64,000 nt of DNA from NCBI GenBank assembly GCA_963645035.1, contig CAVIQY010000002.1, positions 557 through 64,556 on the forward strand, in the 5' to 3' direction. Shown here piece after piece: positions 7,249-40,393 of this stretch. Position 1 is the stretch's first letter. The number at the start of each line of letters is the position of its first letter. A program made the translations under genes and the position numbers. Source of the DNA: a bacterium (GTDB taxonomy: Bacteria; Bacillota_I; Bacilli_A; Erysipelotrichales; Erysipelotrichaceae). The notes under the pieces are model-generated. The model was not told the origin of the DNA and ran no database searches. It saw only the letters and a program-made list of their open reading frames with translations.

Positions 7249-7572
7249 ATGAAAAAAGCAGCATATAACTTAATGCCTAAAACAGAAAAAATATTATGTA
7301 CAATGGGCGAACAGATTAAATTAGCAAGATTAAGGAGAAATTTGACAATACAACTAGTTGCTGAAAGAGCAGGAATTAGTAGAGCAACAGTATGGAAAAT
7401 TGAAAAAGGTGATCCTTCTGTAGCAATGGGAATGTATGCTGTTGTATTGATGGCATTAAATGGTTTGGATAAAGATTTATTGCTTATTGCAAAAGATGAT
7501 GAACTAGGTAGAACGTTACAAGATTTGAATTTAAAGCCAGGAAGAAGGGCAACATGGAGGAATAAAAAATGA
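7249..7572 (+). CDS. XRE/HipB-like HTH antitoxin
   Basis: IKLARLRRNLT..VAERAGISRATVWKIEKG HTH; start moved to the ATG after SD GAGG; ATGA overlap with the toxin gene. Confidence 0.85.
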   Translation: MKKAAYNLMPKTEKILCTMGEQIKLARLRRNLTIQLVAERAGISRATVWKIEKGDPSVAMGMYAVVLMALNGLDKDLLLIAKDDELGRTLQDLNLKPGRRATWRNKK

Positions 7573-16239: not shown

Positions 16240-18114
16240 TTATCTACTGGCATGACGCATTTGTTTATTTTGATACATTTTTTGATCAGCGATAATTCTT
16301 AGTTTTGATTCGTCATCTGTTTCAGTAGGATAAATCGCATATCCACAACTTGTACCAACATTTAATGTAATATCATCAAATATATAAGGTTTTTCAATCA
16401 TGTCATGAATACGAGTAATCACTTTTTCTGCAAATTCAACTGAAGATTGATTGAAGATGATTGTAAATTCATCACCACCGATACGGAATACATAGTCATC
16501 ACTTCTAGTACATTGTTGTAAACGCTTGGCAACTTCTTTTAATAGCTTATCACCAACATCGTGACCATATGTATCATTGACATCTTTAAAATGATCTAAA
16601 TCCAAATAGAATAGGGTAAATGCATGGTTTTCTAATGCTTTCTTATGAAGTGTTGTACTAAAGAATCTTTCATTAAATAAACCAGTTAAACCATCACTAT
16701 TCGCAAGATTTTCTAATTCATGTTGTTCACCAATATCTTGTCCAATTAACATGATTTTGGTGACTACACCATTTTCAAATTCTAGAGGAATGACATTCAT
16801 CATTAAGAAGATATTTTCTGTTCGCTTTGCATATTCAATTTTTAAGATATCATTTGAAGATTTGATTACACTTTGAATATGTTCTGTCTTTAATATGTCA
16901 TAAATTTTTACATAATTTGGATCATTTAAGACAACATATCGCTTAGAAATATCATTAATTAAATCATCGTATTTACCAGTTTTATCATATAGAGAATTAG
17001 ACTCTTGCCCATAGTATTCATAGGTATCATTCTTTAAGTTTCCTACAGCATATCTTGTGACAATTTGTTTGAACCCTGTAAGTAAAGCTTCTTTCCATTC
17101 TGATTGAGAATATAAACGGTTATTTTCTAGTATTGTCTTTTGTAATTTATTTTCTTGAACATCGATTTTGGATTTTGTTTTTAAATGAATCATCCAAATA
17201 AATAAAGCTGATGCGAAAATCGTTAAAGCTAAGATAGATAATAGTGTAATTGCTTGTACTTGAATTAAAACGCCATTTACACTATTAATATCTACCATCG
17301 CAATAATTGTCCAATCATCGATACCAACAGGAATAGAGATTAGATAATAGTCTTTTTTGTTATAAGAAACTTTAATACTCGCTTCTTCAAAGGATTGAAT
17401 TTGTTGCTCGAAATATGCACTACTATGTTCTGTTTGAAAATAGAAATTATCATTCATATAAGAATAGAAATTAGGGACGAAATCCGTAATTTCAGTCTTT
17501 TCTTCTAGTGCTAAAACAACATCTCCATTTGAATTAACAATATAACTATCACTTTTTCTTTTGGCATTAGATGCGTTAATTACATTTCTTACGGTGTCAG
17601 AATTATAACTAACCGCAATACCATTAAATGTGACGCCATTGTATGTGATTGGTTTATTTAAAGGTCTTGCAAAAACAGTTTTACGTTGATTATTCGTAGA
17701 CATATATGTTGAAATAACGGGTTTTTGTTCCTCATACATTTCATTAAAAATATTCACGATATTGTCAACGGTACCATTTCTTGAAGAAGCAGTTAAAAAG
17801 TCTCCATTTTCATTAAATAAATAGAAATCACTAACTTCCCATGAGTCTTTATCATAGGCTAATTCTTTCCAGATAGATATCGCTTCATCAGCATCATCAA
17901 TTGTTTCTAAACGGTTATTCCAATCGGATAATAAATTCCAATTTCGCTGTACGAATTGTGTGAAAGTAGTATTAATTTGTTCATATGTTGAAATTAAACT
18001 GTCTGTACCTTCAATATAGATTAGGTTTTGAATATATTTCTGGTAGGCAATAAAAGAAATAAGTTCAAAGAATATAAAGACGGTAACGATAAAATAAAAC
18101 TTCTTTTTCTTCAT
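16240..18114 (-). CDS. Membrane sensor diguanylate cyclase (TM, Cache-like domain, TM, GGDEF)
   Basis: DGLTGLFN, DLDHFKDVNDTYGHDVGD, RSDD I-site five residues before an intact GGDEF, two TM helices; start moved to the ATG after GGAGG. Confidence 0.9.
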   Translation of the reverse strand: MKKKKFYFIVTVFIFFELISFIAYQKYIQNLIYIEGTDSLISTYEQINTTFTQFVQRNWNLLSDWNNRLETIDDADEAISIWKELAYDKDSWEVSDFYLFNENGDFLTASSRNGTVDNIVNIFNEMYEEQKPVISTYMSTNNQRKTVFARPLNKPITYNGVTFNGIAVSYNSDTVRNVINASNAKRKSDSYIVNSNGDVVLALEEKTEITDFVPNFYSYMNDNFYFQTEHSSAYFEQQIQSFEEASIKVSYNKKDYYLISIPVGIDDWTIIAMVDINSVNGVLIQVQAITLLSILALTIFASALFIWMIHLKTKSKIDVQENKLQKTILENNRLYSQSEWKEALLTGFKQIVTRYAVGNLKNDTYEYYGQESNSLYDKTGKYDDLINDISKRYVVLNDPNYVKIYDILKTEHIQSVIKSSNDILKIEYAKRTENIFLMMNVIPLEFENGVVTKIMLIGQDIGEQHELENLANSDGLTGLFNERFFSTTLHKKALENHAFTLFYLDLDHFKDVNDTYGHDVGDKLLKEVAKRLQQCTRSDDYVFRIGGDEFTIIFNQSSVEFAEKVITRIHDMIEKPYIFDDITLNVGTSCGYAIYPTETDDESKLRIIADQKMYQNKQMRHASR

Positions 18115-18209
18115 AATGCCTCCCACTTGCTAAAATTTTACATAAATAATTCGGATTCACCAAGAAAAAAATCTATAGAATTCTTATTGTTTTTAACAAT
18201 GTTTTTTAC

Positions 18210-20216
18210 TTATGCTTGTTTATTCCTTTTCTTGTAGTAAGTTAGTCCACCAAATACAGCTAATAAGATAATAACCACTAATGCAACTGTACTACTACCA
18301 TTTCCAAAAATACTTCCTGTTTCGCTTACTTCTTCGTTAACTTCTTCATTTTGTACATTGCTATATACAGCTGTAAGTTCTAAATCATCAGTTAAGGAAT
18401 CAGCTTTTAATGTTTCACCATCAACAGTGATATCTTCAGGAATGTTTTGCCATTCGACAAATGTTTTTCCTTCAACACTTGGTGCTTGTAATTCAAATGC
18501 ATCCGTAGTATTAAATTCTAATATTTGTATGTCTAATACAGTTCCTTCTTCATTTACTAGATTTAGCGTTACAGTATGAATTTCTTCAACAAGATCTTCG
18601 TTAGGCTCAGGTGAAGCAGTTTCTTCAGGTAACTCACTTTCTACAGTAGCTGTTATTTCAGCTTCTTCAGTTGTCTCTATTTTTTCTGCATCTTGAGTAG
18701 GATCACTAGTTATAGAAGGGGCAGTTTCTAATAATGCAGTATCTTGATTACTTGCTTCAGCGATGATTACATTATTTCCTTTTACAATAGATAGCGTTTT
18801 AGCACTATCATCATAAGATAGCCCATTTTCACCACGTTCGTTTCCATTCAACTTATATATTTTTCGAGAATCACTAGTTTGATTCTTTGCCATAACACGC
18901 TTACCAGTGATGACTAGGCCAATAGAACTAGATGAATCAGGTGCACTAAGAATATAAGCATCTGAAGCAACACCGGTTTGTAAATACAAATCTGCATCGA
19001 CTTTATTGAATGAATCATAATTATTCTGGATGATAATTTTACCTTTTAAAGTAATATCATTCATTGAATCAACTTCTAATGCACCACTTTTTCCCGAAAG
19101 TGTCGTATTTTCTTCGATAGTAGTATTCTCAAGAGTAAATCCATCATTATTGACATAGATTGCACTACCAACATAGGCAGAGTTTCCTTTAAATAAACAA
19201 TTCGATACAGTGATATTTTCTTGTTCAACGTCAATTGCACCACCTGTTTTGCCAACATTTTCGATAAATGAGATTCCTTGAATTAATCCTTTATTTTTCG
19301 TGAGTACACTTTGATTAATCATTATGGCACCACCATCGCCACCATTTAGATAGGTATTATAGCGAACATAGCCAGTGTTATTGCTAGAAATCAATTCAAA
19401 ATCGGTTGTATCAAACCAAATTGTAGATTCATTATTGACCACATTATGATCAATGCAACTATTGTCTAATTTGATTGTTGTAAATGTTCCAGAAGAGTAG
19501 AATCCTGAACCGTTGCCATCAGTATAGTTATAAGAAATTTGCGAATCAATCATATCAATGGTTGCACTCTTATCATCTACATAAATGCCAGCACCACCCT
19601 CTGTACTTTTGTTATAGCTGATTTGAGCTAGATTTGTCATTTTGAGTGTGTCACCATCACCATCCATATAGACGCCACCACCATAACCATCTGTTCCCCA
19701 TGAATCTTCAGCATAGTTACCAGAAATCGCAACACAATTTAGATTTAGTGTTGAACCTTCTTTCATGTGGATACCGCCACCACCATTGGTACTAGCACCA
19801 CCAGTAATAAGTCCACCACTAGTTATCGTTACTTTTGTAGTTCCATCTTGAGAATAACCATTTACATTAAAGACAGTATTACTAGCTTTTGAACCGTTTA
19901 AATTTAGTGTCGCTCTTTTTTCAACTTTAATGACTTCACCATTTGTTTTAGCACTAGATAAGTTTCTTGAAATCTTATGACCATTCATTTCTACCGTAGC
20001 ACTTCTACCTTCAATTAATACTAAACGGCTAGATATGTTCCAATCGCATTGCATTACAATGGATACACCATTTTGTGCTGCACTCCATGCCGAATCGATG
20101 GAAGTATATGTTTTTGTGCCATCTTCACTAGTTGCGTAAATCGTTTCTGCTTTAGCACTTATTGGAAAAATGAATAAAATAACCGCAATGAAAATACAAT
20201 ATATATTTTTTCTCAT
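18210..20216 (-). CDS. Secreted, C-terminally anchored right-handed beta-helix surface protein (paralog 1)
   Basis: Signal peptide ending AKA-E, repeated N...GG(A/G)(I/V)Y motifs, acidic E/T linker, ETGSIFGNG followed by TM and YYKKR. Confidence 0.75.
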   Translation of the reverse strand: MRKNIYCIFIAVILFIFPISAKAETIYATSEDGTKTYTSIDSAWSAAQNGVSIVMQCDWNISSRLVLIEGRSATVEMNGHKISRNLSSAKTNGEVIKVEKRATLNLNGSKASNTVFNVNGYSQDGTTKVTITSGGLITGGASTNGGGGIHMKEGSTLNLNCVAISGNYAEDSWGTDGYGGGVYMDGDGDTLKMTNLAQISYNKSTEGGAGIYVDDKSATIDMIDSQISYNYTDGNGSGFYSSGTFTTIKLDNSCIDHNVVNNESTIWFDTTDFELISSNNTGYVRYNTYLNGGDGGAIMINQSVLTKNKGLIQGISFIENVGKTGGAIDVEQENITVSNCLFKGNSAYVGSAIYVNNDGFTLENTTIEENTTLSGKSGALEVDSMNDITLKGKIIIQNNYDSFNKVDADLYLQTGVASDAYILSAPDSSSSIGLVITGKRVMAKNQTSDSRKIYKLNGNERGENGLSYDDSAKTLSIVKGNNVIIAEASNQDTALLETAPSITSDPTQDAEKIETTEEAEITATVESELPEETASPEPNEDLVEEIHTVTLNLVNEEGTVLDIQILEFNTTDAFELQAPSVEGKTFVEWQNIPEDITVDGETLKADSLTDDLELTAVYSNVQNEEVNEEVSETGSIFGNGSSTVALVVIILLAVFGGLTYYKKRNKQA

Positions 20217-20244
20217 GTAATCCCTCTATTTCTAATAAATTTGT

Positions 20245-22425
20245 TTATTGAATCTTCTTTTTCTTGTAGTAAGTTGTACCACCGATAGCGGCTAATAGGA
20301 TAACTACAATTAATGCAACAGTAGTATTTCCATTTCCAAAGATACTACCTGTTTCGCTTGACTCTTCTACTTGTGCTTCACTATATACAGCAATAAGTTC
20401 TAGATCTTCTGTTAAAGAATCAGCTTTCAATGTTTCACCATCAACGTTGATATTTTCAGGAACGTTTTGCCATTCTACAAATGCTTTACCTTCGACACTA
20501 GGAGCTTGTAATTCAAATACATCTATTGAATAAAATTCCATTTGTTGTGTGTCTAATACATTACCTTCTTCATCAACTAGATTTATCGTAACTATATGGA
20601 TTTCTTCAGCTAAAGGCATGTCGTTATCACTATCTGTATAAACAACAGTTAATTCAATATCTTCTGTTAAGTTATTTGATGTAATTACATCGTTATCTAC
20701 TGTTAATCCTTCAGGAACATAACGCCATTCTACAAATGTTCTATTATCAATAGCTGGTGCTAGTAATGAGAATGTTTCGTTAGCATTAAATGATAGTGTT
20801 TCTGTTTCAGTCCATGTACCAGATTCGTTTGTTTTATTTAATGTAACAGTACGCGTTTCTATTTCAGGATCTTCTGTAGTTTCTGCTGTTTCTGTAGCTT
20901 CAACTAGAGCACCTTCAGTAGGGGTAGTTTCATTAAGCAAGTTATCTTGATTACTAGCTTCAGCAACAATTACACCACTTGTTCCTTCTTTAATGGATAT
21001 TGTTTTAGCACTATCATCATAAACAATTTCGTTCTTTCCAAATGGATTGCCATTTAAGAAATAAACATTTTGCATATCACTATTTTGATTTTTAGCCATT
21101 ACACGATTACCAGTAATAACTAGTCCAACACGACTAGACGCATCAGGGGCACTAAGAATATATGCATCTGAAGCAATACCAGTCTGTAAGCATAAATCAG
21201 TATCTGTATTTGATTCTAAGTTATGATTGTTTTGAATAATGACTTTACCTTTTAGGTTAATATCATCTAAAGAATCAATATAAACTGCACCATAATCTTC
21301 ATCTTCAATTGTGTTATTTTCAATAGTTGAGTTTTCAAGAGTGAAGTTATCATTATCTACATTAATTACACCTGATTCACAAGTGTTATTTGTGAAAGTA
21401 CAATTAGATATAACGATATTTTCTTGTGCTATTTTGATGATTTGTCCTTCAGTAGCGACATTATCATTGAATGTAAGACCACTGATTTTTCCTTTGTTTG
21501 TAGTAAATACAACAGAATTACATCTAATTGCTGCAGCGTTAGAAATATATTTATTTTTATTACCAGTGATATAGCTGTTGCATTTATCGGAAACTACTTC
21601 AAAATCTGTATGGAAGAAGTACATTGCACCACCACTACTTTTAGAAACGTTATAGGCAAAAGAACTGTTATCCATAGTTACTTTTGTATGTAAATCATCA
21701 GAATAAAGACCACCACCATAGTAAGCATAATTGTTAGAAATAGTAGAATCACACATTTTAATCGTAGCGTATTCATCATCAGCGTAGATACCACCACCAT
21801 TGACTTCTGCTATGTTATAGCAAATTTTTGTGGCAGTCATATCAACGGTGTCATTATCACCATCCATATAAATCGCACCACCATAACCATCAGATCCTAA
21901 TGATTTTACAGAGTTATTACCAGCAATTGATACAAAGTATAAATTAAGAGTAGAACCTGCTTTCATGTGGATACCACCAGCACCGTTAGAGCTATAACCA
22001 CCAGTAATTAAACCACCTGATTGAATTGTTACATCTTTATAATCTTCAGAATCGAAGCCATCATAACCTTTAAATGTAAAATTTGTATAAGAGGCTAGGG
22101 CACCATTTAAATTTAGCTTTGAATTTTCTTTAAGTATAATTACTTCACCATTTGTTTTTGAACTAGTTAAATTTCTTGAAATCTTATGACCATTCATTTC
22201 AACTGTAGCTTTTTTGCCTTCGTCTAAAACTAAACGACTTGAAATGTTCCAATCACATTGCATTACAATAGGTTCGCCATTTTGTGCAGCATTCCATGCT
22301 GCATCAATGGATGTGTAAGACATTTTTCCATCACTACTTGTAGCATAAACTGTTTCTGCTTTAGCAATGATAGGTGAAAAGAATAAGCCTAAGGCAATTA
22401 AAATCGTATTTATCTTCTTAATCAT
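20245..22425 (-). CDS. Secreted, C-terminally anchored beta-helix surface protein (paralog 2)
   Basis: Colinear with 18210-20216 (IVMQCDWNISSRL, LQTG.ASDAYILSAPD); carries two copies of the small C-terminal module; ETGSIFGNG followed by TM and YYKKKK. Confidence 0.75.
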   Translation of the reverse strand: MIKKINTILIALGLFFSPIIAKAETVYATSSDGKMSYTSIDAAWNAAQNGEPIVMQCDWNISSRLVLDEGKKATVEMNGHKISRNLTSSKTNGEVIILKENSKLNLNGALASYTNFTFKGYDGFDSEDYKDVTIQSGGLITGGYSSNGAGGIHMKAGSTLNLYFVSIAGNNSVKSLGSDGYGGAIYMDGDNDTVDMTATKICYNIAEVNGGGIYADDEYATIKMCDSTISNNYAYYGGGLYSDDLHTKVTMDNSSFAYNVSKSSGGAMYFFHTDFEVVSDKCNSYITGNKNKYISNAAAIRCNSVVFTTNKGKISGLTFNDNVATEGQIIKIAQENIVISNCTFTNNTCESGVINVDNDNFTLENSTIENNTIEDEDYGAVYIDSLDDINLKGKVIIQNNHNLESNTDTDLCLQTGIASDAYILSAPDASSRVGLVITGNRVMAKNQNSDMQNVYFLNGNPFGKNEIVYDDSAKTISIKEGTSGVIVAEASNQDNLLNETTPTEGALVEATETAETTEDPEIETRTVTLNKTNESGTWTETETLSFNANETFSLLAPAIDNRTFVEWRYVPEGLTVDNDVITSNNLTEDIELTVVYTDSDNDMPLAEEIHIVTINLVDEEGNVLDTQQMEFYSIDVFELQAPSVEGKAFVEWQNVPENINVDGETLKADSLTEDLELIAVYSEAQVEESSETGSIFGNGNTTVALIVVILLAAIGGTTYYKKKKIQ

Positions 22426-22447
22426 TTGAATACCTCTTTCTTTTTGA

Positions 22448-22856
22448 TTATTGAATTTTTTCTTGTAATAAGTTAGTCAGCCAAACGTAATGAATAGACT
22501 AATTATGATTAGTGTAACAGTAGTATTTTCTTTGCCAAAAATACTTCCTGCTATACTTGATTCTTCATTTTATACAGCTGTGAGTTATAAATCTTCAGCT
22601 AAATTTCTTGAAATTTTATTATCATTCGTTTCAATCGAGATAATTTACCTTCGCCTAATATTAAACGACTTGAAAGGTTCCAATCGGCTTGCATAATGTT
22701 ACGTTTACTATTTTTAGTAGCGTACCATGCGTCATCGATTGAAGTGTAAGACTTTTTCCCATCATTACTATTTGCATAAATAATTTCTGCTTTTACGCAA
22801 AATGATGATAGAAATATACCGATTATCATTAGGATATTAGAGACTATTCTATTCAT
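22448..22856 (-). pseudogene. Internally deleted third paralog of the beta-helix surface protein
   Basis: The N-terminus (VKAEIIYA...IMQADWNLSSRL) is joined directly to a C-terminal remnant (AEDL*LTAV...AGSIFGKENTTV...LTYYKKK), with frameshifts and stops. Confidence 0.85.
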
Positions 22857-22950
22857 ATATTTATCCCTCTTTAATTATACTCTATATAATAAGGATAGAC
22901 TATAACTTTTTAGGACATGTTCTGTTGTGAATTTCTGCGATTTTATGCAT

Positions 22951-23038
22951 AAAAAAATCTCAGTAGTGGGGATTACTGAGATTTCATCTTTCTATGATAA
23001 GAAAGGGAGGGAGTCAGGTGTGTTAGTTCATCTGACAG
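22951..23038 (-). ncRNA. Candidate C-rich small RNA ending in an intrinsic terminator
   Basis: Order on the minus strand: hairpin, UCCCUCC linker, hairpin, 11-bp terminator stem with AUCCCCAC loop, U tract. No ORF. Confidence 0.5.
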
Positions 23039-23128
23039 TTATTAGGATACAGCAAATGAATGAAAGAAAAGTGCATTCTATGTGAACGATTTGTGAAGAA
23101 TTTTGTGAATTTATGTTACATTAGTGTT

Positions 23129-23845
23129 ATGAATAAATTTAGTGAACGTATATATTACATGATGCATGATGATACAAATGATGAGCCTTATCTTTTCTAT
23201 ATCAAAGGAGACCGTTTTAGTATTCAAATTGATGCTGGTAATTCTCCAAAAAGTTTTAGAAAATTTGAAGAAATCCAAGAAACAGAACATCTAGATCAAC
23301 CTAGTTTACTTGTATTAACACATTGGCATTGGGATCATACATTTGGTTTAGTAAGTGCTAAATGTCCTGTTTTAGCGACGAAGAAAACGCAAGAATATTT
23401 AAATGAAGTCCATAATTGGAAATGGACAGAAGAAGAGATGCAAGAAAGAATTAAACAAAAAAAGGATATTCCTTTCTGCTATGAAAAAATGCATGTAGAA
23501 TATCCAGATATTTCTAAAATTCAGACAAGAAGTGCTGATATTGTGATTGATTCAACTGTATCAATAGATTTAGGTGGTATCACTTGTAAGCTTATTCCAC
23601 ACGATTCGCCACATACTAGAGATGCGCTATTCATCTATATTCCTAGTGAGAAAGTACTTATTGGTGGCGATGCTGAGTATGAAGACTATTACGATAATGA
23701 TTCAAAATATGATTTGAGTCGTTTAAGAGATTTTATTTCTTTTGTTTCATCAATTGATTTTGAATACTATCTTCATGGCCATGATGATCTCTATCTAACA
23801 AAACAACAATTGCTAGATAAGCTTAATGCTCATCTAGTGTTCTAG
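23129..23845 (+). CDS. MBL-fold metallo-hydrolase
   Basis: IDAG, THWHWDH, PHT.D, GD and HGH motifs; start moved to the ATG at 23129. Confidence 0.85.
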   Translation: MNKFSERIYYMMHDDTNDEPYLFYIKGDRFSIQIDAGNSPKSFRKFEEIQETEHLDQPSLLVLTHWHWDHTFGLVSAKCPVLATKKTQEYLNEVHNWKWTEEEMQERIKQKKDIPFCYEKMHVEYPDISKIQTRSADIVIDSTVSIDLGGITCKLIPHDSPHTRDALFIYIPSEKVLIGGDAEYEDYYDNDSKYDLSRLRDFISFVSSIDFEYYLHGHDDLYLTKQQLLDKLNAHLVF

Positions 23846-24481
23846 GTTATCTTTTTTAAGATAACCATCTTTTTTTAAGAAGAAAAGAATTGGGATATAC
23901 GTTAGTATTGGTAGAACAATGCCAGTATAAGGATTAGCTGATTGTACTAAGCTATTATAAATAGCGTGATAAATGATAGAAATAGATAATACTGCAAATA
24001 ATCCTGTATAAAGTAATTTCTTTTGTGTTTTGATATAAATTAGTCCATTACCAATAATTAGACAACAAACTCCATGCATAAGTGCTGATCCAAAACCTCG
24101 AATAAATGCCCAAAGAATAGAAACACTATCTACATAGATGACTAGAGACCATACATTTTCTAATAAAGCAAAACCTATACCAATAGCCATAGATATCCCT
24201 AAGATATCTTGTTTATTATTAGAAATAAATAAGGCATAAAAGGCAATAGGAATCGCTTTTAATATTTCTTCAATAATTGGTGTAATTGTTGTTGTGGCAT
24301 AAATCCAATCTTCTGTAATGGAATAGGCAATAATCGGATTAATTTCTGATGCTAAAAGACAAACGGTCATTCCTAATATTAAGAAAAGAACTAATCTTTT
24401 TGACTTTTTTTCTAATAGCCAAGTCATCATAAATAAAGGAATCGTCATGGAGATAAATAAGATATAAACTAAATTTTCCAT
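23834..24481 (-). CDS. PrsW-family glutamic intramembrane protease
   Basis: PIIEEILK, GIGFALLEN, MHG and YHAIYN motifs; start moved to the ATG after AGGAG. Confidence 0.87.
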   Translation of the reverse strand: MENLVYILFISMTIPLFMMTWLLEKKSKRLVLFLILGMTVCLLASEINPIIAYSITEDWIYATTTITPIIEEILKAIPIAFYALFISNNKQDILGISMAIGIGFALLENVWSLVIYVDSVSILWAFIRGFGSALMHGVCCLIIGNGLIYIKTQKKLLYTGLFAVLSISIIYHAIYNSLVQSANPYTGIVLPILTYIPILFFLKKDGYLKKDNLEH

Positions 24482-25113
24482 TGTTTTAAACTCCTTGCGA
24501 TAAAGTGAGTAAGCAAAAGACAAAATAATATTGTTAAAATACAAGATAGCGTTGGTTTATTTTCTAATATTTGTGTGTTCATACCAAAACAGGCTAGTAT
24601 CGATATGATAGATATTAGGATATTACATGGCTTAACTAATTTTAAAAATAAGAAATTCATATCTGGTAATAAGACTTGCTTAAAACTGTAATAAGAAGAA
24701 AATGCAATGGGAACAGTTAAAATTGCGTAAACAATTTTTAATGTGTCATTTGTCGCAAGATGAATATTTCTTAACATTAGTCCTACAACACAAATCGGTC
24801 CTAATAATGCCAAAAGGCGATACTTTCTTAAATCTTTTGATTCATCATCCATGATATGATTCATTACCCCGTAATTTGCAGAAGCTAAAAAGAGGAATGA
24901 TCCAAATGTACATACATATTTCAAATTAAATCCTTCAGGTAATGATCCAAAAGAATAGATTGTAACGATAGAGTAGAGCTTGCCTAATGCGTAACAACCT
25001 ATAGCCGCAATAAATATTTTTAAATATAGAGCAACTCTTTTTTTGTAAATTTTAAATAATAAATATAAAAAACAAGAACTAATTCCAAAAAATGTTATCC
25101 AATCTTCTGTCAT
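24469..25113 (-). CDS. Hypothetical multi-pass membrane protein
   Basis: About 7 hydrophobic segments, SD AAGGA, overlaps the start of the PrsW-family gene. Confidence 0.7.
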   Translation of the reverse strand: MTEDWITFFGISSCFLYLLFKIYKKRVALYLKIFIAAIGCYALGKLYSIVTIYSFGSLPEGFNLKYVCTFGSFLFLASANYGVMNHIMDDESKDLRKYRLLALLGPICVVGLMLRNIHLATNDTLKIVYAILTVPIAFSSYYSFKQVLLPDMNFLFLKLVKPCNILISIISILACFGMNTQILENKPTLSCILTILFCLLLTHFIARSLKQWKI

Positions 25114-25242
25114 ATGAATTCCTTTCACTCTTATCATTTTAACGAAATATAGGAAAAAACATATATTGTGAAATTATGTGAATACTTCACTTTTTGAAAA
25201 ATCATGTTATACTATAGTCACTGGTAACACAGAAAGGACATG

Positions 25243-27276: not shown

Positions 27277-29637
27277 ATGGCAAACATTTTTGATCGTATT
27301 TTAAATACAGATGCGCATAAAATAAAAGAAATAGAAAAGAAGATTAAACCAGCTGAAGATATGGCTGAAAAATATAAAGCGATGAGTGATGATGAACTTA
27401 AAGCTGAGACACCAAGATTAAGAGCGTTACTTGCATCAGGAAAGACATTAGATGATATTTTACCTGAAGCTTTCGCTACAGCTCGTGAAGCTTGTAGAAG
27501 AGTAATTGGTGAATATCCATATCATGTGCAATTAATTGGTGCTTGCATTATGCAAGGTGGCGATATTGCAGAAATGAAAACAGGTGAAGGTAAAACTTTA
27601 ACATCTGTTATGGCAGTATATCTAAATGCCTTAGCTGGACAAGGTGTTCATGTTGTTACAGTTAACGAATACTTATCTAAGCGTGACTCAGAGTGGATGG
27701 GACAAATTCACCGTTTCTTAGGATTAACAGTAGGTTTAAACCTAAGAGAAATGACACCTGCTCAAAAACGTGCAGCTTATGCTTGCGATATCACTTATAC
27801 AACAAACTCAGAACTAGGTTTTGACTATTTAAGAGATAACATGGTCACAAATGCAAAAGATAGAGTACAACGTGGTTTAAATTTCGCCCTTGTCGATGAA
27901 GTAGACTCTATTTTAATTGATGAATCTAGAACGCCATTAATTATTTCTGGTGGAATGAAACAAACTGCTAACTTATATTTACAAGCAGATCGTTTTGTTA
28001 AACGCTTAAAAGCTGAACAAGACTATGAAATTGATGTTAAAGGACGTACTTGTCAATTAACTGAAGAAGGCGTAAGTAAGGCAGAAAAAGCTTTCCGTAT
28101 TGAAAATCTTTATAACCTAGAACATACACAATTACTACACCGTATTAATCAAGCATTAAAAGCAAACTACATTATGGCAAAAGATGTTGAATATGTTGTA
28201 GATAAAGAAAATGATCAAATTCATATCGTTGACCCTAATACAGGTAGATTGATGAAGGGCAGAGAATGGTCTGATGGTTTACATCAAGCAGTATGTGCAA
28301 AAGAAGGCATCTCTATTCGCCAAGAAACAACTGTTTTAGCTACAATTACATATCAGAACTTCTTCCGTTTATATAACAAACTAGCAGGTATGACAGGTAC
28401 TGCTAAGACTGAGGAAGAAGAATTCCATGAAATTTATAACATGCTTGTTTTAGAAGTGCCTACAAATAAACCAGTTGCTCGTATTGATCAACCAGATGCT
28501 GTATATGGTACAAAGAAAGCTAAATTCGAAGCACTTGTTGAAGAAGTAGAAAAGCGTCATGCGACAGGTCAACCAGTACTTGTTGGTACGATTGCGGTAG
28601 AAACTTCTGAATTAATTAGCCAAATGCTAAAGAAAAAGAAGATTCCACATGAAGTATTAAATGCAAAAAACAATGAGCGTGAAGCAGAAATTATTGCTAA
28701 AGCTGGTGAAAAAGGTGCAGTTACTATCGCTACAAACATGGCAGGACGTGGTACAGATATTAAGCTAGGAGAAGGCGTAAGAGAATTAGGTGGCTTATGT
28801 GTACTTGGTTCTGAACGTCATGAATCTAGACGTATTGATAACCAATTAAGAGGACGTTCTGGTAGACAAGGTGATCCAGGCGAATCAAGATTCTATGTAT
28901 CTGTACAAGATGATTTGATGGTTCGTTTTGGTAGTGAAAGAATGGAAGGCCTATTTGCTAAGTTAGGCGATGAAGCTATTGAAAGTAAGACAATCACAAA
29001 GTCTATTACTTCTGCACAAAAACGTGTTGAAGGAATTAACTTTGATGCTCGTAAGACTTTATTACAATATGATGATGTACTTCGTCAACAACGTGAAGTT
29101 ATGTATGATCAAAGAAACTTCATTCTAGATAATGAAGATGTTCATAGTGTAATTAAAGGAATGTTTAATAGAGTAATTTCTGATACAGTTAGCGCCCATG
29201 TTATTCCTGATTCTAGACATAATGAAGTAAATGTAGATGAACTAGTTGCTTCATTAAATAAGATGGGATTTACAGACTTAGTTACAGCTAATGAATTACA
29301 AAATAAATCTGTTGAAGATATGATTAGTTTAATCGATGAAAGAGCTTGGAATGCTTATGATACAAAGATTGAACCAGTTCGTGATAAGATTCGTCAATTT
29401 GAAAGAGAAATGTCTCTAAGAGTCATTGACCGTGCATGGGTAGATCATATCGATACAATGAGTAAATTACGTGATGGTATTGGATTAAGAAGCTATGCTC
29501 AAGATAATCCATTACAAGCATATGTAACAGAAGGATACCAATTATTTGAAAATATGATGCAATCTATTGCTCAAGGTATTGTTACATATTGTATGAACTT
29601 AAAAGTAGTTCAAGAAAACCATACAGATAAAGCATAA
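27277..29637 (+). CDS. secA: Preprotein translocase ATPase SecA
   Basis: MKTGEGKT, DEVDSILIDE, TNMAGRGTDI, QLRGRSGRQGD; no C-terminal zinc-binding tail. Confidence 0.98.
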   Translation: MANIFDRILNTDAHKIKEIEKKIKPAEDMAEKYKAMSDDELKAETPRLRALLASGKTLDDILPEAFATAREACRRVIGEYPYHVQLIGACIMQGGDIAEMKTGEGKTLTSVMAVYLNALAGQGVHVVTVNEYLSKRDSEWMGQIHRFLGLTVGLNLREMTPAQKRAAYACDITYTTNSELGFDYLRDNMVTNAKDRVQRGLNFALVDEVDSILIDESRTPLIISGGMKQTANLYLQADRFVKRLKAEQDYEIDVKGRTCQLTEEGVSKAEKAFRIENLYNLEHTQLLHRINQALKANYIMAKDVEYVVDKENDQIHIVDPNTGRLMKGREWSDGLHQAVCAKEGISIRQETTVLATITYQNFFRLYNKLAGMTGTAKTEEEEFHEIYNMLVLEVPTNKPVARIDQPDAVYGTKKAKFEALVEEVEKRHATGQPVLVGTIAVETSELISQMLKKKKIPHEVLNAKNNEREAEIIAKAGEKGAVTIATNMAGRGTDIKLGEGVRELGGLCVLGSERHESRRIDNQLRGRSGRQGDPGESRFYVSVQDDLMVRFGSERMEGLFAKLGDEAIESKTITKSITSAQKRVEGINFDARKTLLQYDDVLRQQREVMYDQRNFILDNEDVHSVIKGMFNRVISDTVSAHVIPDSRHNEVNVDELVASLNKMGFTDLVTANELQNKSVEDMISLIDERAWNAYDTKIEPVRDKIRQFEREMSLRVIDRAWVDHIDTMSKLRDGIGLRSYAQDNPLQAYVTEGYQLFENMMQSIAQGIVTYCMNLKVVQENHTDKA

Positions 29638-29646
29638 GAGGTAGTT

Positions 29647-30748
29647 ATGGAATTATATGACATGAAACAAAGCATTCTAAAGAGCCAAGCTAAATTGGAG
29701 CAGCTTGGTGAATCTCTTTGACTTTTCTTCTAAACAAGCAATTATTGCCAAAAATGAAGAATTAATGAACGGAGAGAACTTTTGGAATGATCAGAAGAAA
29801 GCACAAAATATTATTCGTGAAACAAACAATTTAAAATCTTTATTAGAAAATCATTCTAAATTAACAGATGCGTTTAAAGAATTAGATGCCAGTGTTGAAG
29901 AATTAAAAGAAAGTTTTGATGATGATTTAAAAGAACTTGTGGATGAAGAATATAAAACAACAATGAAATCTTTTGAAGAATATGAAATACAAGTGTTATT
30001 AAGTGGTCCATATGATGATCATAATTGTATTTTAGAAATTCATCCTGGTGCTGGTGGAACAGAAGCGATGGATTGGGCACAAATGCTTTATCGTATGTAT
30101 TGCCGCTATGGAGAAAGAAAAGGATATAAGATTACAGTTCTAGATTATTTAGAAGGTGAAGAAGCAGGAATTAAATCTGTTTCAGTATTACTAGAAGGAC
30201 CTATGGCTTATGGTTATTTAAAGGCTGAAAATGGGGTTCATCGTTTAGTACGTATTTCGCCTTTTGATTCAAATGCTAGACGTCATACATCTTTTGCGTC
30301 AGTTGAAGTCATTCCTGAATTTGAAGATGATATGGATATCGAAATTGATGAAAAAGATTTAGATGTTGTGACAATGCGTGCTAGTGGTGCAGGAGGACAG
30401 CATATCAATAAAACTGACTCTGCAGTAAGAATGACACATATTCCTACAGGAATTGTTGTTTCGTGCCAAACAGAACGATCACAAATACAAAACCGTGAGA
30501 GATGTTTGAATATGTTAAAATCAAAGCTCTTACAAAAGAAGATAGAAGAAAATGCTAAGAAAATGGCAGATATAAAAGGTGAACAAAAAGCAATTGAATG
30601 GGGTTCACAAATTCGTTCATATGTTTTTTGCCCATATACTATGGTGAAGGACTTAAGAACAGGATATGAAGTAGGTAACATACAAGCTGTTATGGATGGT
30701 GATTTAGATGGTTTCATCTATAGTTACTTACGTTCACAAATTGAATAA
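29647..30748 (+). CDS. prfB: Peptide chain release factor 2 with programmed +1 frameshift
   Basis: ATG at 29647 reads MELYDM...GESL up to CTT TGA C (29716-29722); the +1 frame continues DFSSK and contains SPF and GGQ. Confidence 0.96.
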
Positions 30749-30756
30749 GAATAGTT

Positions 30757-33700
30757 ATGGCAAAAGAAATAAGATATGAACTGAATTTAAATGATTACAG
30801 TTTTACAAATCATGGTGAAGTTTATGCAATATTAAAAAATATATTGCATTTAAGTGACCATGAAATATCACAATGTAAGTTCGATGGAGAAATATTAGTG
30901 AATGGAGATAGAGTACATGTTCATTCACATATGAAAGTATCGGATATTTTAATTGTGCGTTTTCCTAGTGATGAGGAACATGAAGTGTTAGATGTAGATG
31001 AAGAACCAGATATTCTTTATGAAACAGAAGACTTTGTGGCAGTAAATAAACCAAGTGGTGTACCAACTCATGCTAGTCATAATCATTTAAATGATTCTAC
31101 AGGAACGATTCTTATTTCTCATTACCAAAAACAAGGTGTTCCTTTTACAGTTCGCTCTATTGGTAGATTAGATAATGAAGTTAGTGGTGTTGTTTTATTT
31201 GCAAAAAATCAACCGGCAGCTGCGAGATTAAATTCGGAAAGAAAAACAGGACAATTACGTAAGATTTATATTGCTTATGCTGAAGGCATCTTTGATGAAA
31301 AAGATGGCACGATTACTTTACCTCTAAGTAAAGTAGAAGAAGGTAAACAAAGAGTTGTTGATGAAGTAAATGGACAAAAAGCGATTACTCGTTATCAAGT
31401 AATGGAAGAAAGAGAAATTGATGGTTTCAAATATAGTATTGTAGCAGTAACAATTATTACAGGAAGAACACATCAAATTCGTGCTCATATGAAGGCAATA
31501 GGTCATCCTTTACTTGGTGATTCACTTTATGGTGGAAATTGTGATTATATAAGTCGAGTAGCTTTACATGCGGCTAAGATGGAATTTATTTCTCCTTTTG
31601 ATGAAGAAAAAATAAAGATTTCTGCTCCTTTAGCAGAAGATATGAAAGATCTTGTTAAAAATAGTGCTATATATACAAAACCTATTGAAGTTGATGAAAA
31701 AACAAAAGAATTAACAGAAGAAATTATTCAACCAATACAAGAAGAAAGTACTTTAGAAACAAAAACAGTTCCAATTGAAGAAGCAGCTGTTGTGATGCCT
31801 AAAGAAAAGAAGAAATCCTATAAAATATTACTTGTATTACTCATTCTATTTTTATTAGGATTAGTTAGTTTTGGTATTTATTACTTTGTATCAAATTACT
31901 ATAAACCAATGTTAATTGAAGAAACAGCAAGTACTGAAGTAAAAACAGATGATGAATTATATGATTCTTTAGTCATGACATTTAATTCTACTAGTAGTGT
32001 AAATCTAAATGAGAATATTGATCCAATGTCCTTTGTGGAATCTTATGAAGGAGAAATAAAAGTTTTACATGATTTAGATACTTCGGTTATAGGGAATCAA
32101 CATATTGTTTATCGCTTATCGGTTAAAAATAGTGAAGGAAAAGATGTTACACGGATTTATGTTAAAGAAGTAACGGTTAAAGGCAGTGAAGTTGGTGCAA
32201 TTTTCGAAGCAAGTAGTGTCACAATTAAAGCTGGATCTAATTTTGATCCTCGTGATAATATCACAGCTATATATGATTCTAATGGTAAAGAATTAACTTA
32301 TAGTGAAGGTGAATTAATTGAAGGAACATATACTGTTGAAAGTGATGTAAATAACCAAAAAGAAGGAACATATACTGTAACAATCAAGATGATGGATGAA
32401 AGTGGTGCTACTTCTAAAGCTACTTATGAAGTCATTGTTAAAGGAACAGTAGGTTCAACTACTCCAGTTATTTGGATTAGAAAAGACGAAATTACAATCA
32501 CAAAAGGAACGACATACGATATTCTAAACAATGTTATTTCTGTTTCGGATTCAAGTGGTGTGGCACTTGCCTATGCAAAAGAAGAAAAAGTAAGTAGTTA
32601 TACGATTACAACAGATTTTAACAATCAAAAAGTAGGTACATATAGTGTGAAGTTAACTGCGACAGACGCGAGTGGAAATAAAGGATATGATGATTGGAAG
32701 ATCATTGTAAATGAACCTACTCCTACGCCTAGCGCTACAGCAGTTGCAGATAAAGTTGCCCCACAAATATTGATTAATAAAGATGAGATTACATTAAGAA
32801 AAGGAACGACATATGATGTAGTAAGTAATGTTGTTTCAGTTATCGATGATGTGGATGGTAAACTTCCATATAGTGCTACAGAAGAAAATGGTACTTATAC
32901 AATAGTGACCGATTTTACCATAAATACACCAGGAACATATAACGTGCAACTTATCGCAACCGATAATGCAGGAAATAAATCATATGATGATTGGAAAATT
33001 ATAGTATTAGATAATGCTAGCTCCGATGGGGTAGGCCCTCATATCTTAATTCGTTATGATAATATTACGATTAAAGTTGGGGCAAATATTAATTTGCGTA
33101 CAAATGTCATTTCAGTTACTGATGCCATAGATGGAACGATTCCTTATGCGGATAGCGAACAAAATGGTAAATATACAATTGTGTCGGATTTAAATATCAA
33201 TGAACCAGGCGTATATAATGTGCAACTCATTGCATTAGATAAAGAAGGAAATCGTACAACTGATGAATGGACTATTACTGTTGAAGCTAAACCTGATTCA
33301 GATTCTACACCACCGCAAATATGGATTTATCAAGAATATTTCACGATTACTGTAGGAGCGAACTATAACTTATCTAAGAATATTATGTCAGTTACAGATG
33401 ATGTAGATGGTGCTTTACCATATTCAGATACAGAAGCGAATGGTTCCTATACCTTAGTGACAAACTTTGATATTAATACAGTAGGTGAATATAGCGTACA
33501 ACTTATCGCAACAGATAGTTCTGGAAATAAATCCTATGATGATTGGATTGTCAATGTTGTTGCGGCAAGTGGTGAAGACAAAGGTGATGGAAGTAGTAAT
33601 TCTGATCAAATCTATAACTATTTAACAGGAACAGTTGGTTTAAATCGTGCAGGTGCGATTGGTATTATGGCAAATATCAAGCGTGAATCTTCCTATAATC

Positions 33701-33999
33701 CAGATAACTATAATGGTTCTGGTAATTATGGCTTATGTCAATGGGGTGGTTCTAGATATAGAAGATTAATGGAATTCTGTACTAATAATGGCTTAGATTA
33801 TAGAACAGTTAGTGGACAAGTTCGTTTCATTGAATATGAATTAAACAATTATTATCAAGGCGTATTATCACAACTACAATCTGTAGAAGATAGTCAAGAT
33901 GGTGCATATAGTGCTGGATATATCTTTGCAGAACAATATGAAGGTGCTGGTCCTGGTTATCCTGAACAAGCAGGCGAAAGTGCTAAGAGTATGTACTAA
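30757..33999 (+). CDS. Fusion protein: RluA-family pseudouridine synthase, TM helix, Ig-like repeats, phage-tail-type lysozyme
   Basis: VNKPSG, GRLD, TGRTHQIR and GHPLLGD.LYG in aa ~1-300; TM at aa ~357-378; repeats of about 90 aa; C-terminal GIMANIKRES...YGLCQW. Confidence 0.8.
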   Translation: MAKEIRYELNLNDYSFTNHGEVYAILKNILHLSDHEISQCKFDGEILVNGDRVHVHSHMKVSDILIVRFPSDEEHEVLDVDEEPDILYETEDFVAVNKPSGVPTHASHNHLNDSTGTILISHYQKQGVPFTVRSIGRLDNEVSGVVLFAKNQPAAARLNSERKTGQLRKIYIAYAEGIFDEKDGTITLPLSKVEEGKQRVVDEVNGQKAITRYQVMEEREIDGFKYSIVAVTIITGRTHQIRAHMKAIGHPLLGDSLYGGNCDYISRVALHAAKMEFISPFDEEKIKISAPLAEDMKDLVKNSAIYTKPIEVDEKTKELTEEIIQPIQEESTLETKTVPIEEAAVVMPKEKKKSYKILLVLLILFLLGLVSFGIYYFVSNYYKPMLIEETASTEVKTDDELYDSLVMTFNSTSSVNLNENIDPMSFVESYEGEIKVLHDLDTSVIGNQHIVYRLSVKNSEGKDVTRIYVKEVTVKGSEVGAIFEASSVTIKAGSNFDPRDNITAIYDSNGKELTYSEGELIEGTYTVESDVNNQKEGTYTVTIKMMDESGATSKATYEVIVKGTVGSTTPVIWIRKDEITITKGTTYDILNNVISVSDSSGVALAYAKEEKVSSYTITTDFNNQKVGTYSVKLTATDASGNKGYDDWKIIVNEPTPTPSATAVADKVAPQILINKDEITLRKGTTYDVVSNVVSVIDDVDGKLPYSATEENGTYTIVTDFTINTPGTYNVQLIATDNAGNKSYDDWKIIVLDNASSDGVGPHILIRYDNITIKVGANINLRTNVISVTDAIDGTIPYADSEQNGKYTIVSDLNINEPGVYNVQLIALDKEGNRTTDEWTITVEAKPDSDSTPPQIWIYQEYFTITVGANYNLSKNIMSVTDDVDGALPYSDTEANGSYTLVTNFDINTVGEYSVQLIATDSSGNKSYDDWIVNVVAASGEDKGDGSSNSDQIYNYLTGTVGLNRAGAIGIMANIKRESSYNPDNYNGSGNYGLCQWGGSRYRRLMEFCTNNGLDYRTVSGQVRFIEYELNNYYQGVLSQLQSVEDSQDGAYSAGYIFAEQYEGAGPGYPEQAGESAKSMY

Positions 34000-34670
34000 T
34001 GATTACAGATGATTTAAAAAAGTTAAGTGATTGTAACTATAAAGAATTTCAAGGTAATCTTATACCGAATATTGATTCAAAGACAGTATTAGGGGTAAGA
34101 ACACCTATACTAAGGAAATATGCTAGTAAGTTAAGTGATGAAGAAAAAAAGGAATTTCTTCATCACTTACCACATACTTATTATGATGAAAATATACTAC
34201 ATGGTATCTTGTTATCACAAATAACAGATTATGAAGTATTTATCGAAGAAATTAATACTTTTTTGCCTTATATCGATAATTGGGCAGTATGCGATATTAT
34301 TAAGCCAAAAGTAGTCATAAATCATTCAAAAGAGTTTATTCGTGAAGTAAAAACATGGATTAAATCTTCAGAAATCTATACTATTCGCTTTGGCATAGAT
34401 ATGTTAATGACTTATTACTTAGATGATGAGTATCGAAAAACATATTTAACTTATCCATTAAAAGTAAAGTCTAATGACTATTATGTAAATATGGCTGTTG
34501 CATGGTTTTATGCAACAGCACTAGCGAAAAGATGGGATGATACGATTCTTATCCTTGAAGAAAAAAGATTACCTAAGTGGACACACAATAAAACTATACA
34601 GAAAGCGATAGAAAGTTATCGGATTACTAGTAGTCAGAAAGACGATTTAAAATCATTACGGTTAAAATAA
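33999..34670 (+). CDS. DNA alkylation repair protein (AlkD-like)
   Basis: LGVRTP.LR, IDNWAVCD, YYVNMAVAW, HNKTIQKA.ES. Confidence 0.85.
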   Translation: MITDDLKKLSDCNYKEFQGNLIPNIDSKTVLGVRTPILRKYASKLSDEEKKEFLHHLPHTYYDENILHGILLSQITDYEVFIEEINTFLPYIDNWAVCDIIKPKVVINHSKEFIREVKTWIKSSEIYTIRFGIDMLMTYYLDDEYRKTYLTYPLKVKSNDYYVNMAVAWFYATALAKRWDDTILILEEKRLPKWTHNKTIQKAIESYRITSSQKDDLKSLRLK

Positions 34671-39448: not shown

Positions 39449-39487
39449 ATATAATATACAATAGATTTGATAGAGGTAGAGGACAAC

Positions 39488-40393
39488 ATGAGATACATCT
39501 CAGTTACAGAAGCAGCTGAAAAATGGAATATATCAGAACGTAGCGTTAGAAATTATTGTGCTTCAGGTAGAGTGAATGGTGCAGTTCTTTCCGGTAAAAC
39601 ATGGAAAATTCCTGAAGATGCTAGTAAACCTGAGCGTTCTAATAAAAAGAAAGAAGACCAAAAATCATTGTTAGAAATTCTTCAAGAAGAGAAATCTAGT
39701 AAGTATTCTGGTGGTATTTATCATAAGACACAAATAGAATTAACATACAACTCTAATCATATCGAAGGTAGTCGCCTTACACATGATCAGACTAGATATA
39801 TTTTTGAAACAAATACAATTGGTATAGAAACCGAAGTACTGAATGTAGATGATGTAATTGAAACAGTAAATCATTTTAGATGTATTGATATGATTATTGA
39901 CCGAGCAAAAGCAACGTTAACTGAAAAGTTCATTAAAGAATTACATTTGATCCTTAAAAGTGGTACTAGTGATTCTAGAAAAGATTGGTTTGCTGTAGGA
40001 GATTACAAAAAGAAGCCTAATGAAGTAGTTGGAATAGAAACAGTACTACCAGAAGAAGTTCATAATAAAATGAAAGCTCTACTTGCAGAATATAATGTAA
40101 AAGAAGAAAAGACATTAGAAGATATATTAGACTTTCATGTAAAGTTCGAACGTATTCATCCTTTCCAAGATGGAAATGGTAGGGTAGGAAGACTAATTTT
40201 GTTTAAAGAATGTCTCAAATATAATATTGTTCCATTCATGATTAATGATGATTTAAAAATGTACTATTATCGAGGACTAAAAGAATGGAATAATGAAAAA
40301 GGTTATTTGCTAGATACATGTCTAACAGCACAAGATGAGTATAAAGCGTATTTAGATTATTTCAGAATTAATTATGAAAGAGAGAATAAATAA
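39488..40393 (+). CDS. Fic-domain protein with N-terminal excisionase-like HTH
   Basis: SVTEAAEKWNISERSVR HTH, inhibitory motif SNHIEG, catalytic motif HPFQDGNGRVGR. Confidence 0.92.
   Translation: MRYISVTEAAEKWNISERSVRNYCASGRVNGAVLSGKTWKIPEDASKPERSNKKKEDQKSLLEILQEEKSSKYSGGIYHKTQIELTYNSNHIEGSRLTHDQTRYIFETNTIGIETEVLNVDDVIETVNHFRCIDMIIDRAKATLTEKFIKELHLILKSGTSDSRKDWFAVGDYKKKPNEVVGIETVLPEEVHNKMKALLAEYNVKEEKTLEDILDFHVKFERIHPFQDGNGRVGRLILFKECLKYNIVPFMINDDLKMYYYRGLKEWNNEKGYLLDTCLTAQDEYKAYLDYFRINYERENK

Follow-up and report, generated by a model that had tools for sequence, protein, structure and literature searches.

The gene and its product

We analysed a 64,000-nucleotide stretch of contig CAVIQY010000002.1 (assembly GCA_963645035.1) from a member of the Erysipelotrichaceae; this whole stretch is called the window here, and its genome G000. 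At 30757-33999 on the forward strand of the window lies a single open frame of 1080 amino acids (aa), P0001. Its product consists of a putative S4-like N-terminal domain, a pseudouridine synthase catalytic domain of the RluA family, an acidic linker, one predicted membrane helix, a stalk of immunoglobulin-like (Ig) modules and a C-terminal lysozyme domain (Table 1). An earlier note on this DNA, made from its letters alone, had described one uninterrupted 1080-aa frame and a membrane-tethered pseudouridine synthase joined to an outer wall hydrolase. The frame was confirmed, and the sequence analysis supports the second description. Pfam matched PseudoU_synth_2, Ig-like families and Phage_lysozyme2, the three kinds of domain that had been named. 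The positions claimed for the two catalytic residues, Asp139 and Glu977, were correct, as was the single helix at about aa 357-378, and the "about six" Ig modules, four of them closely related, proved to be six in the model, with modules 3-6 being 41-57% identical to each other.

An AlphaFold model based on an alignment of 32 fused sequences reached a mean predicted local distance difference test score (pLDDT) of 80.8 and a predicted template modelling score (pTM) of 0.38, the latter expected for beads on a string. It showed the synthase, a low-confidence linker at aa 331-356, the helix, six beta-sandwich modules and a helical lysozyme domain. The whole 1080-aa protein had no usable match in the ESM Atlas.

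We considered whether the frame is an assembly artefact or reflects a stop codon that this strain lost recently. Seven of the eight members of the 90% identity cluster, drawn from two sources (NCBI and Logan), were full-length at 1080 aa, and the eighth was a 301-aa C-terminal fragment. The fusion also recurs in 27 genomes and in at least 10 clusters at 50% identity. This conservation refutes the artefact, to which we give almost no credence. The GC content at third codon positions was 0.09-0.18 across all five regions of the gene, with no step pointing to recent transfer. The fusion is real and old, and its architecture, built from known parts, is conserved and apparently undescribed.

Table 1. 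Coordinates of the fusion gene, its parts and other genes mentioned in the text (window positions unless a locus is given)
Feature	Position	Strand	Basis or remark
Whole fusion gene (P0001)	30757..33999	+	1080 aa; 7 full-length cluster members
Putative S4-like N-terminal domain, aa 1-70, likely RNA-binding	30757..30966	+	Model topology, profile match
RluA-family (YjbO-like) pseudouridine synthase catalytic domain, aa 83-302	31003..31662	+	Pfam, NCBIfam, Foldseek, tree
Catalytic Asp139, motif II GRLD	31171..31173	+	Alignment to RluD motif II
Acidic disordered cytoplasmic linker with basic patch, aa 303-356	31663..31824	+	pLDDT <50 at 331-356
Conserved juxtamembrane E/P-A-V motif, aa 341-345, 13 residues before the membrane helix	31777..31791	+	
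Single transmembrane helix, aa 357-378, predicted N-in C-out	31825..31890	+	Hydropathy, charge bias, model
Six Ig-like modules, aa 404-936, extracellular stalk	31966..33564	+	Pfam, model
Phage-tail-lysozyme domain (PF18013, gp13-like), aa 946-1080	33592..33996	+	Pfam; PDB 3csr/3csq, E 1.7e-6
Predicted catalytic Glu977	33685..33687	+	Alignment with gp13 Glu45
secA	27277-29637	+	Named from sequence
prfB	29647-30748	+	+1 frameshift at CTT-TGA
AlkD-like DNA alkylation repair gene	33999-34670	+	Overlaps the fusion stop codon (TAATG)
Sigma-headed anchor-Ig-lysozyme locus	L108:2241-3866	+	Kin: L103, L109, L110, L116, L117, L118
Dead synthase paralog, G003	L035:7095-9401	-	200-aa repetitive linker, helix, Ig, no lysozyme; between comFC-like and glycolysis genes

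Distribution of the fusion

We next asked how widely the fusion occurs. Among 116 genomes of the genus, 111 matched the synthase at E <= 1e-44, and 27 carried a frame of more than 500 aa behind prfB, which disposes of the possibility, raised in the earlier note, that relatives always encode two separate genes. We read 85 synthase loci from 80 genomes, every long frame included. They comprised 24 complete fusions (763-1080 aa), three truncated by the end of a contig, a further long paralog (G003b) and 57 short, unfused synthases. Of 251 genomes drawn from the family, 28 outside the genus had a match, and no fusion was found in them; the longest frame there was 461 aa, and the two longest frames encoded proteins of 298 and 299 aa.

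A protein database search gave 65 matches, 34 of them with both PF00849 and PF18013; three such proteins and the dead paralog described below are labelled Solobacterium sp. by the source database. When a fusion profile was searched against 1.84 billion representatives, 10 full-length fused clusters and one partial cluster stood at the top, and no further long protein with both halves appeared in the best 150 (to 260 bits), a depth at which a remoter fusion could be missed. Among the matches listed in a contig search, most were ordinary RluA-family genes, and the best two titled loci (L187 and L190) were from Erysipelotrichaceae.

The synthase and lysozyme halves

The synthase half matched PseudoU_synth_2 at aa 92-246 (E 2.8e-29) and the NCBIfam RluA-family model TIGR00005 with 203.5 bits (cut-off 192.7). 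The NCBIfam equivalog cut-offs for E. coli RluA (77.4 of 286) and RluD (103.4 of 351) were not reached. Foldseek placed RluD, RluA and RluC in the top rows, with template modelling (TM) scores by target of 0.79 for RluD (1qyu) and 0.86 for RluA (2i82). The motif residues Lys98, Arg137, Asp139 and Tyr171 and the GRTHQIR motif are all present. Asp139 and Arg137 were each kept in 27/27 main-locus fusions, Lys98 in all 28 long forms and Tyr171 in 26 of these 28; catalytic Asp and Arg were likewise retained in 57/57 short synthases. The first 70 residues show a helix-helix-strand pattern in the model. Pfam S4 itself gave no match there, and a profile of the fused N-termini matched the RluD-like paralog of G000 (E 3.5e-6), one of four RluA-family genes in that genome (C8) and distinct from the fusion.

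The best match to the fused synthase in each of three Bacillus-type genomes was the copy behind the RelA/SpoT and NAD kinase genes, neighbours that Pfam confirmed for L305. The tree gave the same picture: the fused domain branches with these copies (86/91, unstarred), and the C8 gene groups with copies beside signal peptidase II (100/98). Going by the gene order of B. subtilis, the former copy would be yjbO and the latter ylyB. In family score, motifs, fold and nearest Bacillus paralog, and possibly in an S4-like N-terminus, the fusion agrees with the YjbO-type synthases of B. subtilis and S. aureus, from which it differs in its C-terminal membrane anchor and 720 extracellular residues, in a motif II that reads GRLD, and in lying after prfB rather than after an NAD kinase gene. 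According to the literature, tRNA pseudouridine (Psi) at positions 31/32 disappears when YjbO is lost (PMC7408541); the YjbO protein carries an S4-like domain and is not orthologous to RluA (PMC13443448). YlyB is named as the maker of the helix-69 Psi residues (PMC11472175), which PMC7408541 credits to YhcT instead. The grouping with YjbO and the role of YjbO in making tRNA Psi31/32 together suggest that the fused synthase belongs with the Bacillus YjbO-type enzymes, not with E. coli RluA, and that its substrate is likely tRNA, at Psi31/32.

At the other end of the protein, Phage_lysozyme2 (PF18013) matched aa 948-1080 over profile positions 2-137 of 140 (E 7.5e-25, 88.2 bits, cut-off 28.2). 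The domain also matched phi29 gp13 (PDB 3csr/3csq, E 1.7e-6), with Glu977 falling on Glu45, the suggested catalytic residue of gp13 (PMC10394673). This Glu was kept in 26/26 readable fusions, the 27th ending before it, and GLCQW was kept in 24/24. Unlike gp13, the fusion is chromosomal, lies behind secA-prfB, carries its lysozyme domain on an Ig stalk without an M23 domain, and is not a virion protein. PF18013 occurred in 65 of the 116 genus genomes but in just 17 of the 201 taken from the order; G000 has no copy besides the fused one. We rejected the idea that it stands in for missing housekeeping hydrolases, as G000 has FtsX, MltG, CHAP, two M23 and GH25 genes.

Several Ig-like Pfam families were matched between the helix and the lysozyme domain, and the number of Ig modules varied from three to six per fusion. 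The same type of module occurs without a lysozyme in two small proteins of G000 (C27:1656 (-) and C21:13886 (+)), in one of them behind an 88-aa cytoplasmic head and a helix.

One chain or two

A hydropathy scan found one membrane helix, from aa 357, with five Lys/Arg residues before it and one after. An excess of Lys/Arg before the helix was seen in 23 of the 28 long forms (two ties, three reversed), and helix hydropathy was at least 2.0 in 22. The predicted layout is thus that of a type II membrane-anchored wall hydrolase, with one helix, the N-terminus inside and the catalytic domain outside.

We then examined whether the two halves are made as one chain. An alternative is that two products form in vivo, either because translation starts internally or because the linker is cut constitutively, and that the fusion is a tolerated passenger. 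The linker is exposed and acidic, and many kin lack the fusion. In G047 (L063) the synthase and the anchor-Ig-lysozyme module are encoded by neighbouring genes whose stop and start overlap, with a strong Shine-Dalgarno match (-8.2), which makes this locus a natural split control. Moreover, an in-frame start with a Shine-Dalgarno energy of -5 or better lies near the junction in 6 of 28 long genes. These six starts, however, are at non-equivalent positions, and no conserved internal start was found in the 28 long genes; the in-frame starts between synthase and helix are scattered, and the linkers of G122 and G007 contain none. In G000 such starts scored -0.4 to -1.6. The lack of a Shine-Dalgarno sequence before the internal Met347, noticed earlier, was confirmed (-1.6 kcal/mol, no match), but it is weak evidence, because the gene's own start scores just -0.4. 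Junction promoter-like sites numbered 25, against 40.5 in shuffles, and no terminator-like site was found there on the + strand. Across 27 genomes, whose fusions range from 41 to 98% in identity, the junction retains no stop codon, and the linker is under weak purifying selection (below). On this evidence we consider two separate products distinctly unlikely.

Selection and history

Ratios of non-synonymous to synonymous substitution rates (dN/dS; Nei-Gojobori, pooled) were calculated from 10 fused pairs (nine for the lysozyme) and 14 unfused synthase pairs. In the fusions they were 0.137 for the synthase, 0.41 for the linker, 0.24 for the helix, 0.18 for the Ig modules and 0.105 for the lysozyme. 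Both enzymatic halves are therefore under purifying selection, and both look active as judged from these ratios and the retained residues. The unfused synthases gave 0.136, suggesting that fusion neither relaxed nor tightened the constraint on the synthase. The distances of the two halves were strongly correlated among 24 fusions (Mantel r 0.91; 0/2000 permutations), showing that they are inherited together.

The history of the fusion was followed with quick trees. A branch with a support of 99 in the synthase tree divides the 28 long forms and 12 short ones from the other 45 short ones; rooted without G003b, this tree has an open base. SecA-PrfB trees of 77 rows (after removal of 13 loci with one gene missing), or of 61 rows after 26 near-duplicates were thinned and same-family outgroups added, placed fused lineages first and nested the short ones among them, with five changes of state. 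A single clade of all fused genomes was rejected by an approximately unbiased test (p 7.9e-5; 19 vs 42 rows), which was run after the earlier trees had been seen. A tree of the last Ig module and lysozyme had the same shape; its 56 rows omit G084 and G097 (different layout) and G107 and several others (motif filter), and four long-branch rows are probably miscut. The nearest synthases of sister genera are short and located elsewhere, and other genes follow prfB there.

The fusion has been undone in three ways: by a split in place (G047), by a split with relocation (G009, G060, G058 and G051, where the linker end is still present at the new N-terminus), and by a loss in which the module was not found, for example in G006, a genome that is 97% complete. 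The simplest reading is that a synthase gene moved behind prfB and joined a resident anchor-Ig-lysozyme gene once, early in the genus, and that splits and losses followed repeatedly; several independent fusions appear less likely. The short synthase of G006 (L023:7284-8321 (+), 345 aa) carries a leftover linker ending in a Trp/Lys/Leu-rich tail, which could be an amphipathic membrane-binding helix.

Alternative heads and a juxtamembrane motif

The anchor-Ig-lysozyme module also occurs alone (335-390 aa) or, in seven genomes read, with another head of about 170 aa. Pfam has no family for this head. It resembles sigma region 2, with an atlas feature score of 0.90 to the sigma24 family and a TM score of 0.74 to sigma region 2; sigma factors filled the top Foldseek rows for its model, none of them at E <= 0.001. 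P0138 carries a longer head like that of extracytoplasmic function (ECF) sigma factors on the same module (NCBIfam E 8e-4, under the cut-off). The sigma-headed proteins are possibly an undescribed membrane-tethered sigma-like family.

Two further forms retain parts of the synthase. P0078 has the S4-like piece alone (profile E 1.8e-14), followed by linker, helix, Ig and lysozyme, with the synthase catalytic domain deleted; this form was not found as such in the 116 genus genomes. P0043 (= G003b) and P0080 lack the lysozyme as well as the catalytic Arg and Asp, and keep the anchor and Ig modules. Among the 116 genomes the dead paralog occurs just in G003, which also has an intact fusion. P0043 and P0080 are 80% identical in the synthase-fold region, 69% in Ig and 49% in the linker. 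These forms raise the possibility that the inner head is a non-catalytic anchor for RNA or ribosomes, which would hold ribosomes, tRNA or a transcript at sites of wall hydrolysis. The lone S4-like piece of P0078 and the better conservation of the dead synthase fold point that way, and the EloR-MltG pair of streptococci offers a precedent (bioRxiv 10.1101/2020.12.18.423453). Yet all 27 main-locus fusions retain the catalytic residues, and the S4-only and dead forms, represented by one and two sequences respectively, may be relics. We find the RNA-anchor explanation improbable, slightly more so than that of two products.

An Ala-Val pair (AV) 4-24 residues before the helix was present in 13 of 20 lineage representatives, compared with 2.4 in shuffles (0/5000), mostly at -10 to -16. 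It was seen in synthase, sigma, S4-only, dead and split forms. When any dipeptide other than EE was allowed, p was 0.003, for kin that are not independent and a motif noticed before the test. As a control, 18 comparable single-helix proteins of G000 were inspected; three had the pair, two of them being the fusion and a PASTA Ser/Thr kinase (L268:101-1816 (+), G000:C19). Of 29 orthologs of this kinase that were read, 13 carry a P-A-V motif before the membrane helix, compared with 2.1 in shuffles; all 13 belong to the lineages nearest to G000, and the others lack it. A profile of the kinase juxtamembrane segment and helix ranked the fusion segment second of 1485 G000 membrane segments. In the reciprocal profile search the kinase was not among the top 12, and the motif had already been seen when the 13 kinases were chosen. 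The alternative heads, the AV motif and the kinase likeness are leads.

These leads bear on the possibility of one-component signalling, in which the outer part would sense or process peptidoglycan and the inner head would be held inactive until cleavage or a conformational change, letting wall state tune tRNA modification. The sister forms with sigma-like heads in seven genomes and the fuller ECF-like head of P0138, the recurrence of AV 10-16 residues before the helix in the forms listed above, and the rank with the kinase profile all favour it. On the other hand, linker length varies fourfold, 7 of 20 lineages lack the motif, the likeness to the kinase holds in one direction and involves kinases picked after the motif was seen, and fused and free synthases evolve at equal rates. 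In addition, the PrsW-type protease gene of the window does not stand beside the fusion in the relatives' loci read. We therefore regard signalling as unlikely. A broader version, to which we give a little more room and still call doubtful, is a device coupling wall state to tRNA modification, in which an anchor, stalk and muramidase would carry an exchangeable nucleic-acid-acting head, docked or released through the motif shared with the PASTA kinase.

Proposed function

Taken together, the data lead us to favour, by somewhat better than even chances, a membrane tether that joins two independent enzymes. Independence of the halves is suggested because the linker is variable (24 to 94 aa across the 27 fusions) and disordered in the model, because both halves persist alone (G047, G009, G060, G058, G051), and because unfused synthases keep the Asp. 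The variable linker and the repeated splitting or loss of the fusion in kin speak against tight coupling of the halves. A tRNA modifier that normally floats free is likely held by the fusion at the membrane, below the wall enzyme. The patch of basic residues and the helix would act as an uncleaved signal-anchor, and the stalk of three to six Ig modules would lift the muramidase into the wall, where Glu977 would cleave glycan strands. On the inner face of the membrane, the YjbO-like domain, on a flexible leash, would make Psi31/32 in tRNA anticodon loops. Through the fusion, the two enzymes would share a promoter and a start and be made in a 1:1 ratio, and docking at sites of wall remodelling may be a role of the juxtamembrane motif.

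Several observations weigh against this proposal or parts of it. The helix is only weakly hydrophobic (1.3-1.7) in six of the 28 long forms. An ancestral fusion has a base support of just 82-83 in the SecA-PrfB trees. The YjbO label depends on the order of genes in B. subtilis and on a branch that is unstarred, and PMC11472175 warns that the targets of pseudouridine synthases are hard to predict from sequence. Finally, a passive tether alone leaves the AV motif and the sigma-like, S4-only and dead heads unexplained, and likewise the persistence of the fusion while the synthase diverged to 41% identity.

Gene neighbourhood

The fusion starts 8 bases past the stop of prfB, which precedes it in 27/27 cases and has a frameshift site of the usual kind (24 codons, then CTT-TGA-C at 29716-29722). 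The secA-prfB adjacency had been taken as a clue to the function of the fusion; we discarded it as nothing special to the fusion, because unfused orthologs of the genus sit in the same position. The AlkD-like gene lies behind the fusion just in G000, G103, G122 and G124.

Elsewhere in the window, 16240-25137 (-) encodes a GGDEF protein, a 668-aa protein without a Pfam match, a 726-aa beta-helix surface protein, a 222-aa membrane protein and a PrsW-family protease, a cluster that resembles a signalling or surface-sensing unit. A HipA-like kinase gene is at 7569-8843 (+) and a helix-turn-helix-Fic gene at 39467-40393 (+).

Relation to known systems and significance

RluA-family enzymes that modify tRNA or rRNA are treated as soluble, and our literature search, with subscription journals outside its scope, found no description of a protein that combines a pseudouridine synthase with a membrane anchor and a hydrolase. 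The architecture is hidden by annotation because naming sources call such proteins just pseudouridine synthases.

Three known systems are similar in outline. PrgK of pCF10 has an intracellular N-terminal domain, one helix and an outer gp13-like domain with muramidase activity (bioRxiv 10.1101/2024.02.15.580431), the layout of the fusion. It differs in serving a conjugation machine, in having LytM and CHAP domains and in lacking an inner enzyme. We rejected a PrgK-type conjugation hydrolase, since the neighbours of the fusion are comF-like genes, secA, prfB and the AlkD-like gene, with no conjugation genes beside it. Streptococcal MltG is a membrane-bound wall-cutting enzyme whose inner domain brings the RNA-binding EloR/KhpA to the membrane (bioRxiv 10.1101/2020.12.18.423453). 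It is like the fusion in bringing an RNA-binding protein to a wall enzyme, but EloR and MltG are two proteins of unrelated folds without RNA-modifying activity, and G000 has a separate MltG. ECF sigma factors with membrane-spanning C-terminal extensions are known, for example ECF263 (PMC7826278). They too join a nucleic-acid-acting domain to membrane helices, and the sister proteins described above carry sigma-like heads, whereas the window protein has no sigma domain, its head being an RNA-modifying enzyme and its outer part a hydrolase.

An RNA modifier fused across the membrane to a wall hydrolase is thus intact and under selection in 27 species-level genomes, and natural controls exist in the split, relocated, headless, sigma-headed, S4-only and dead versions. 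If wall-to-tRNA signalling were true, it would be a new kind of system, one-component and with RNA modification as its output. The fusion and these controls make it possible to ask directly by experiment whether it matters where in the cell a tRNA modifier sits, and whether remodelling of the wall can influence translation with no separate regulator in between.

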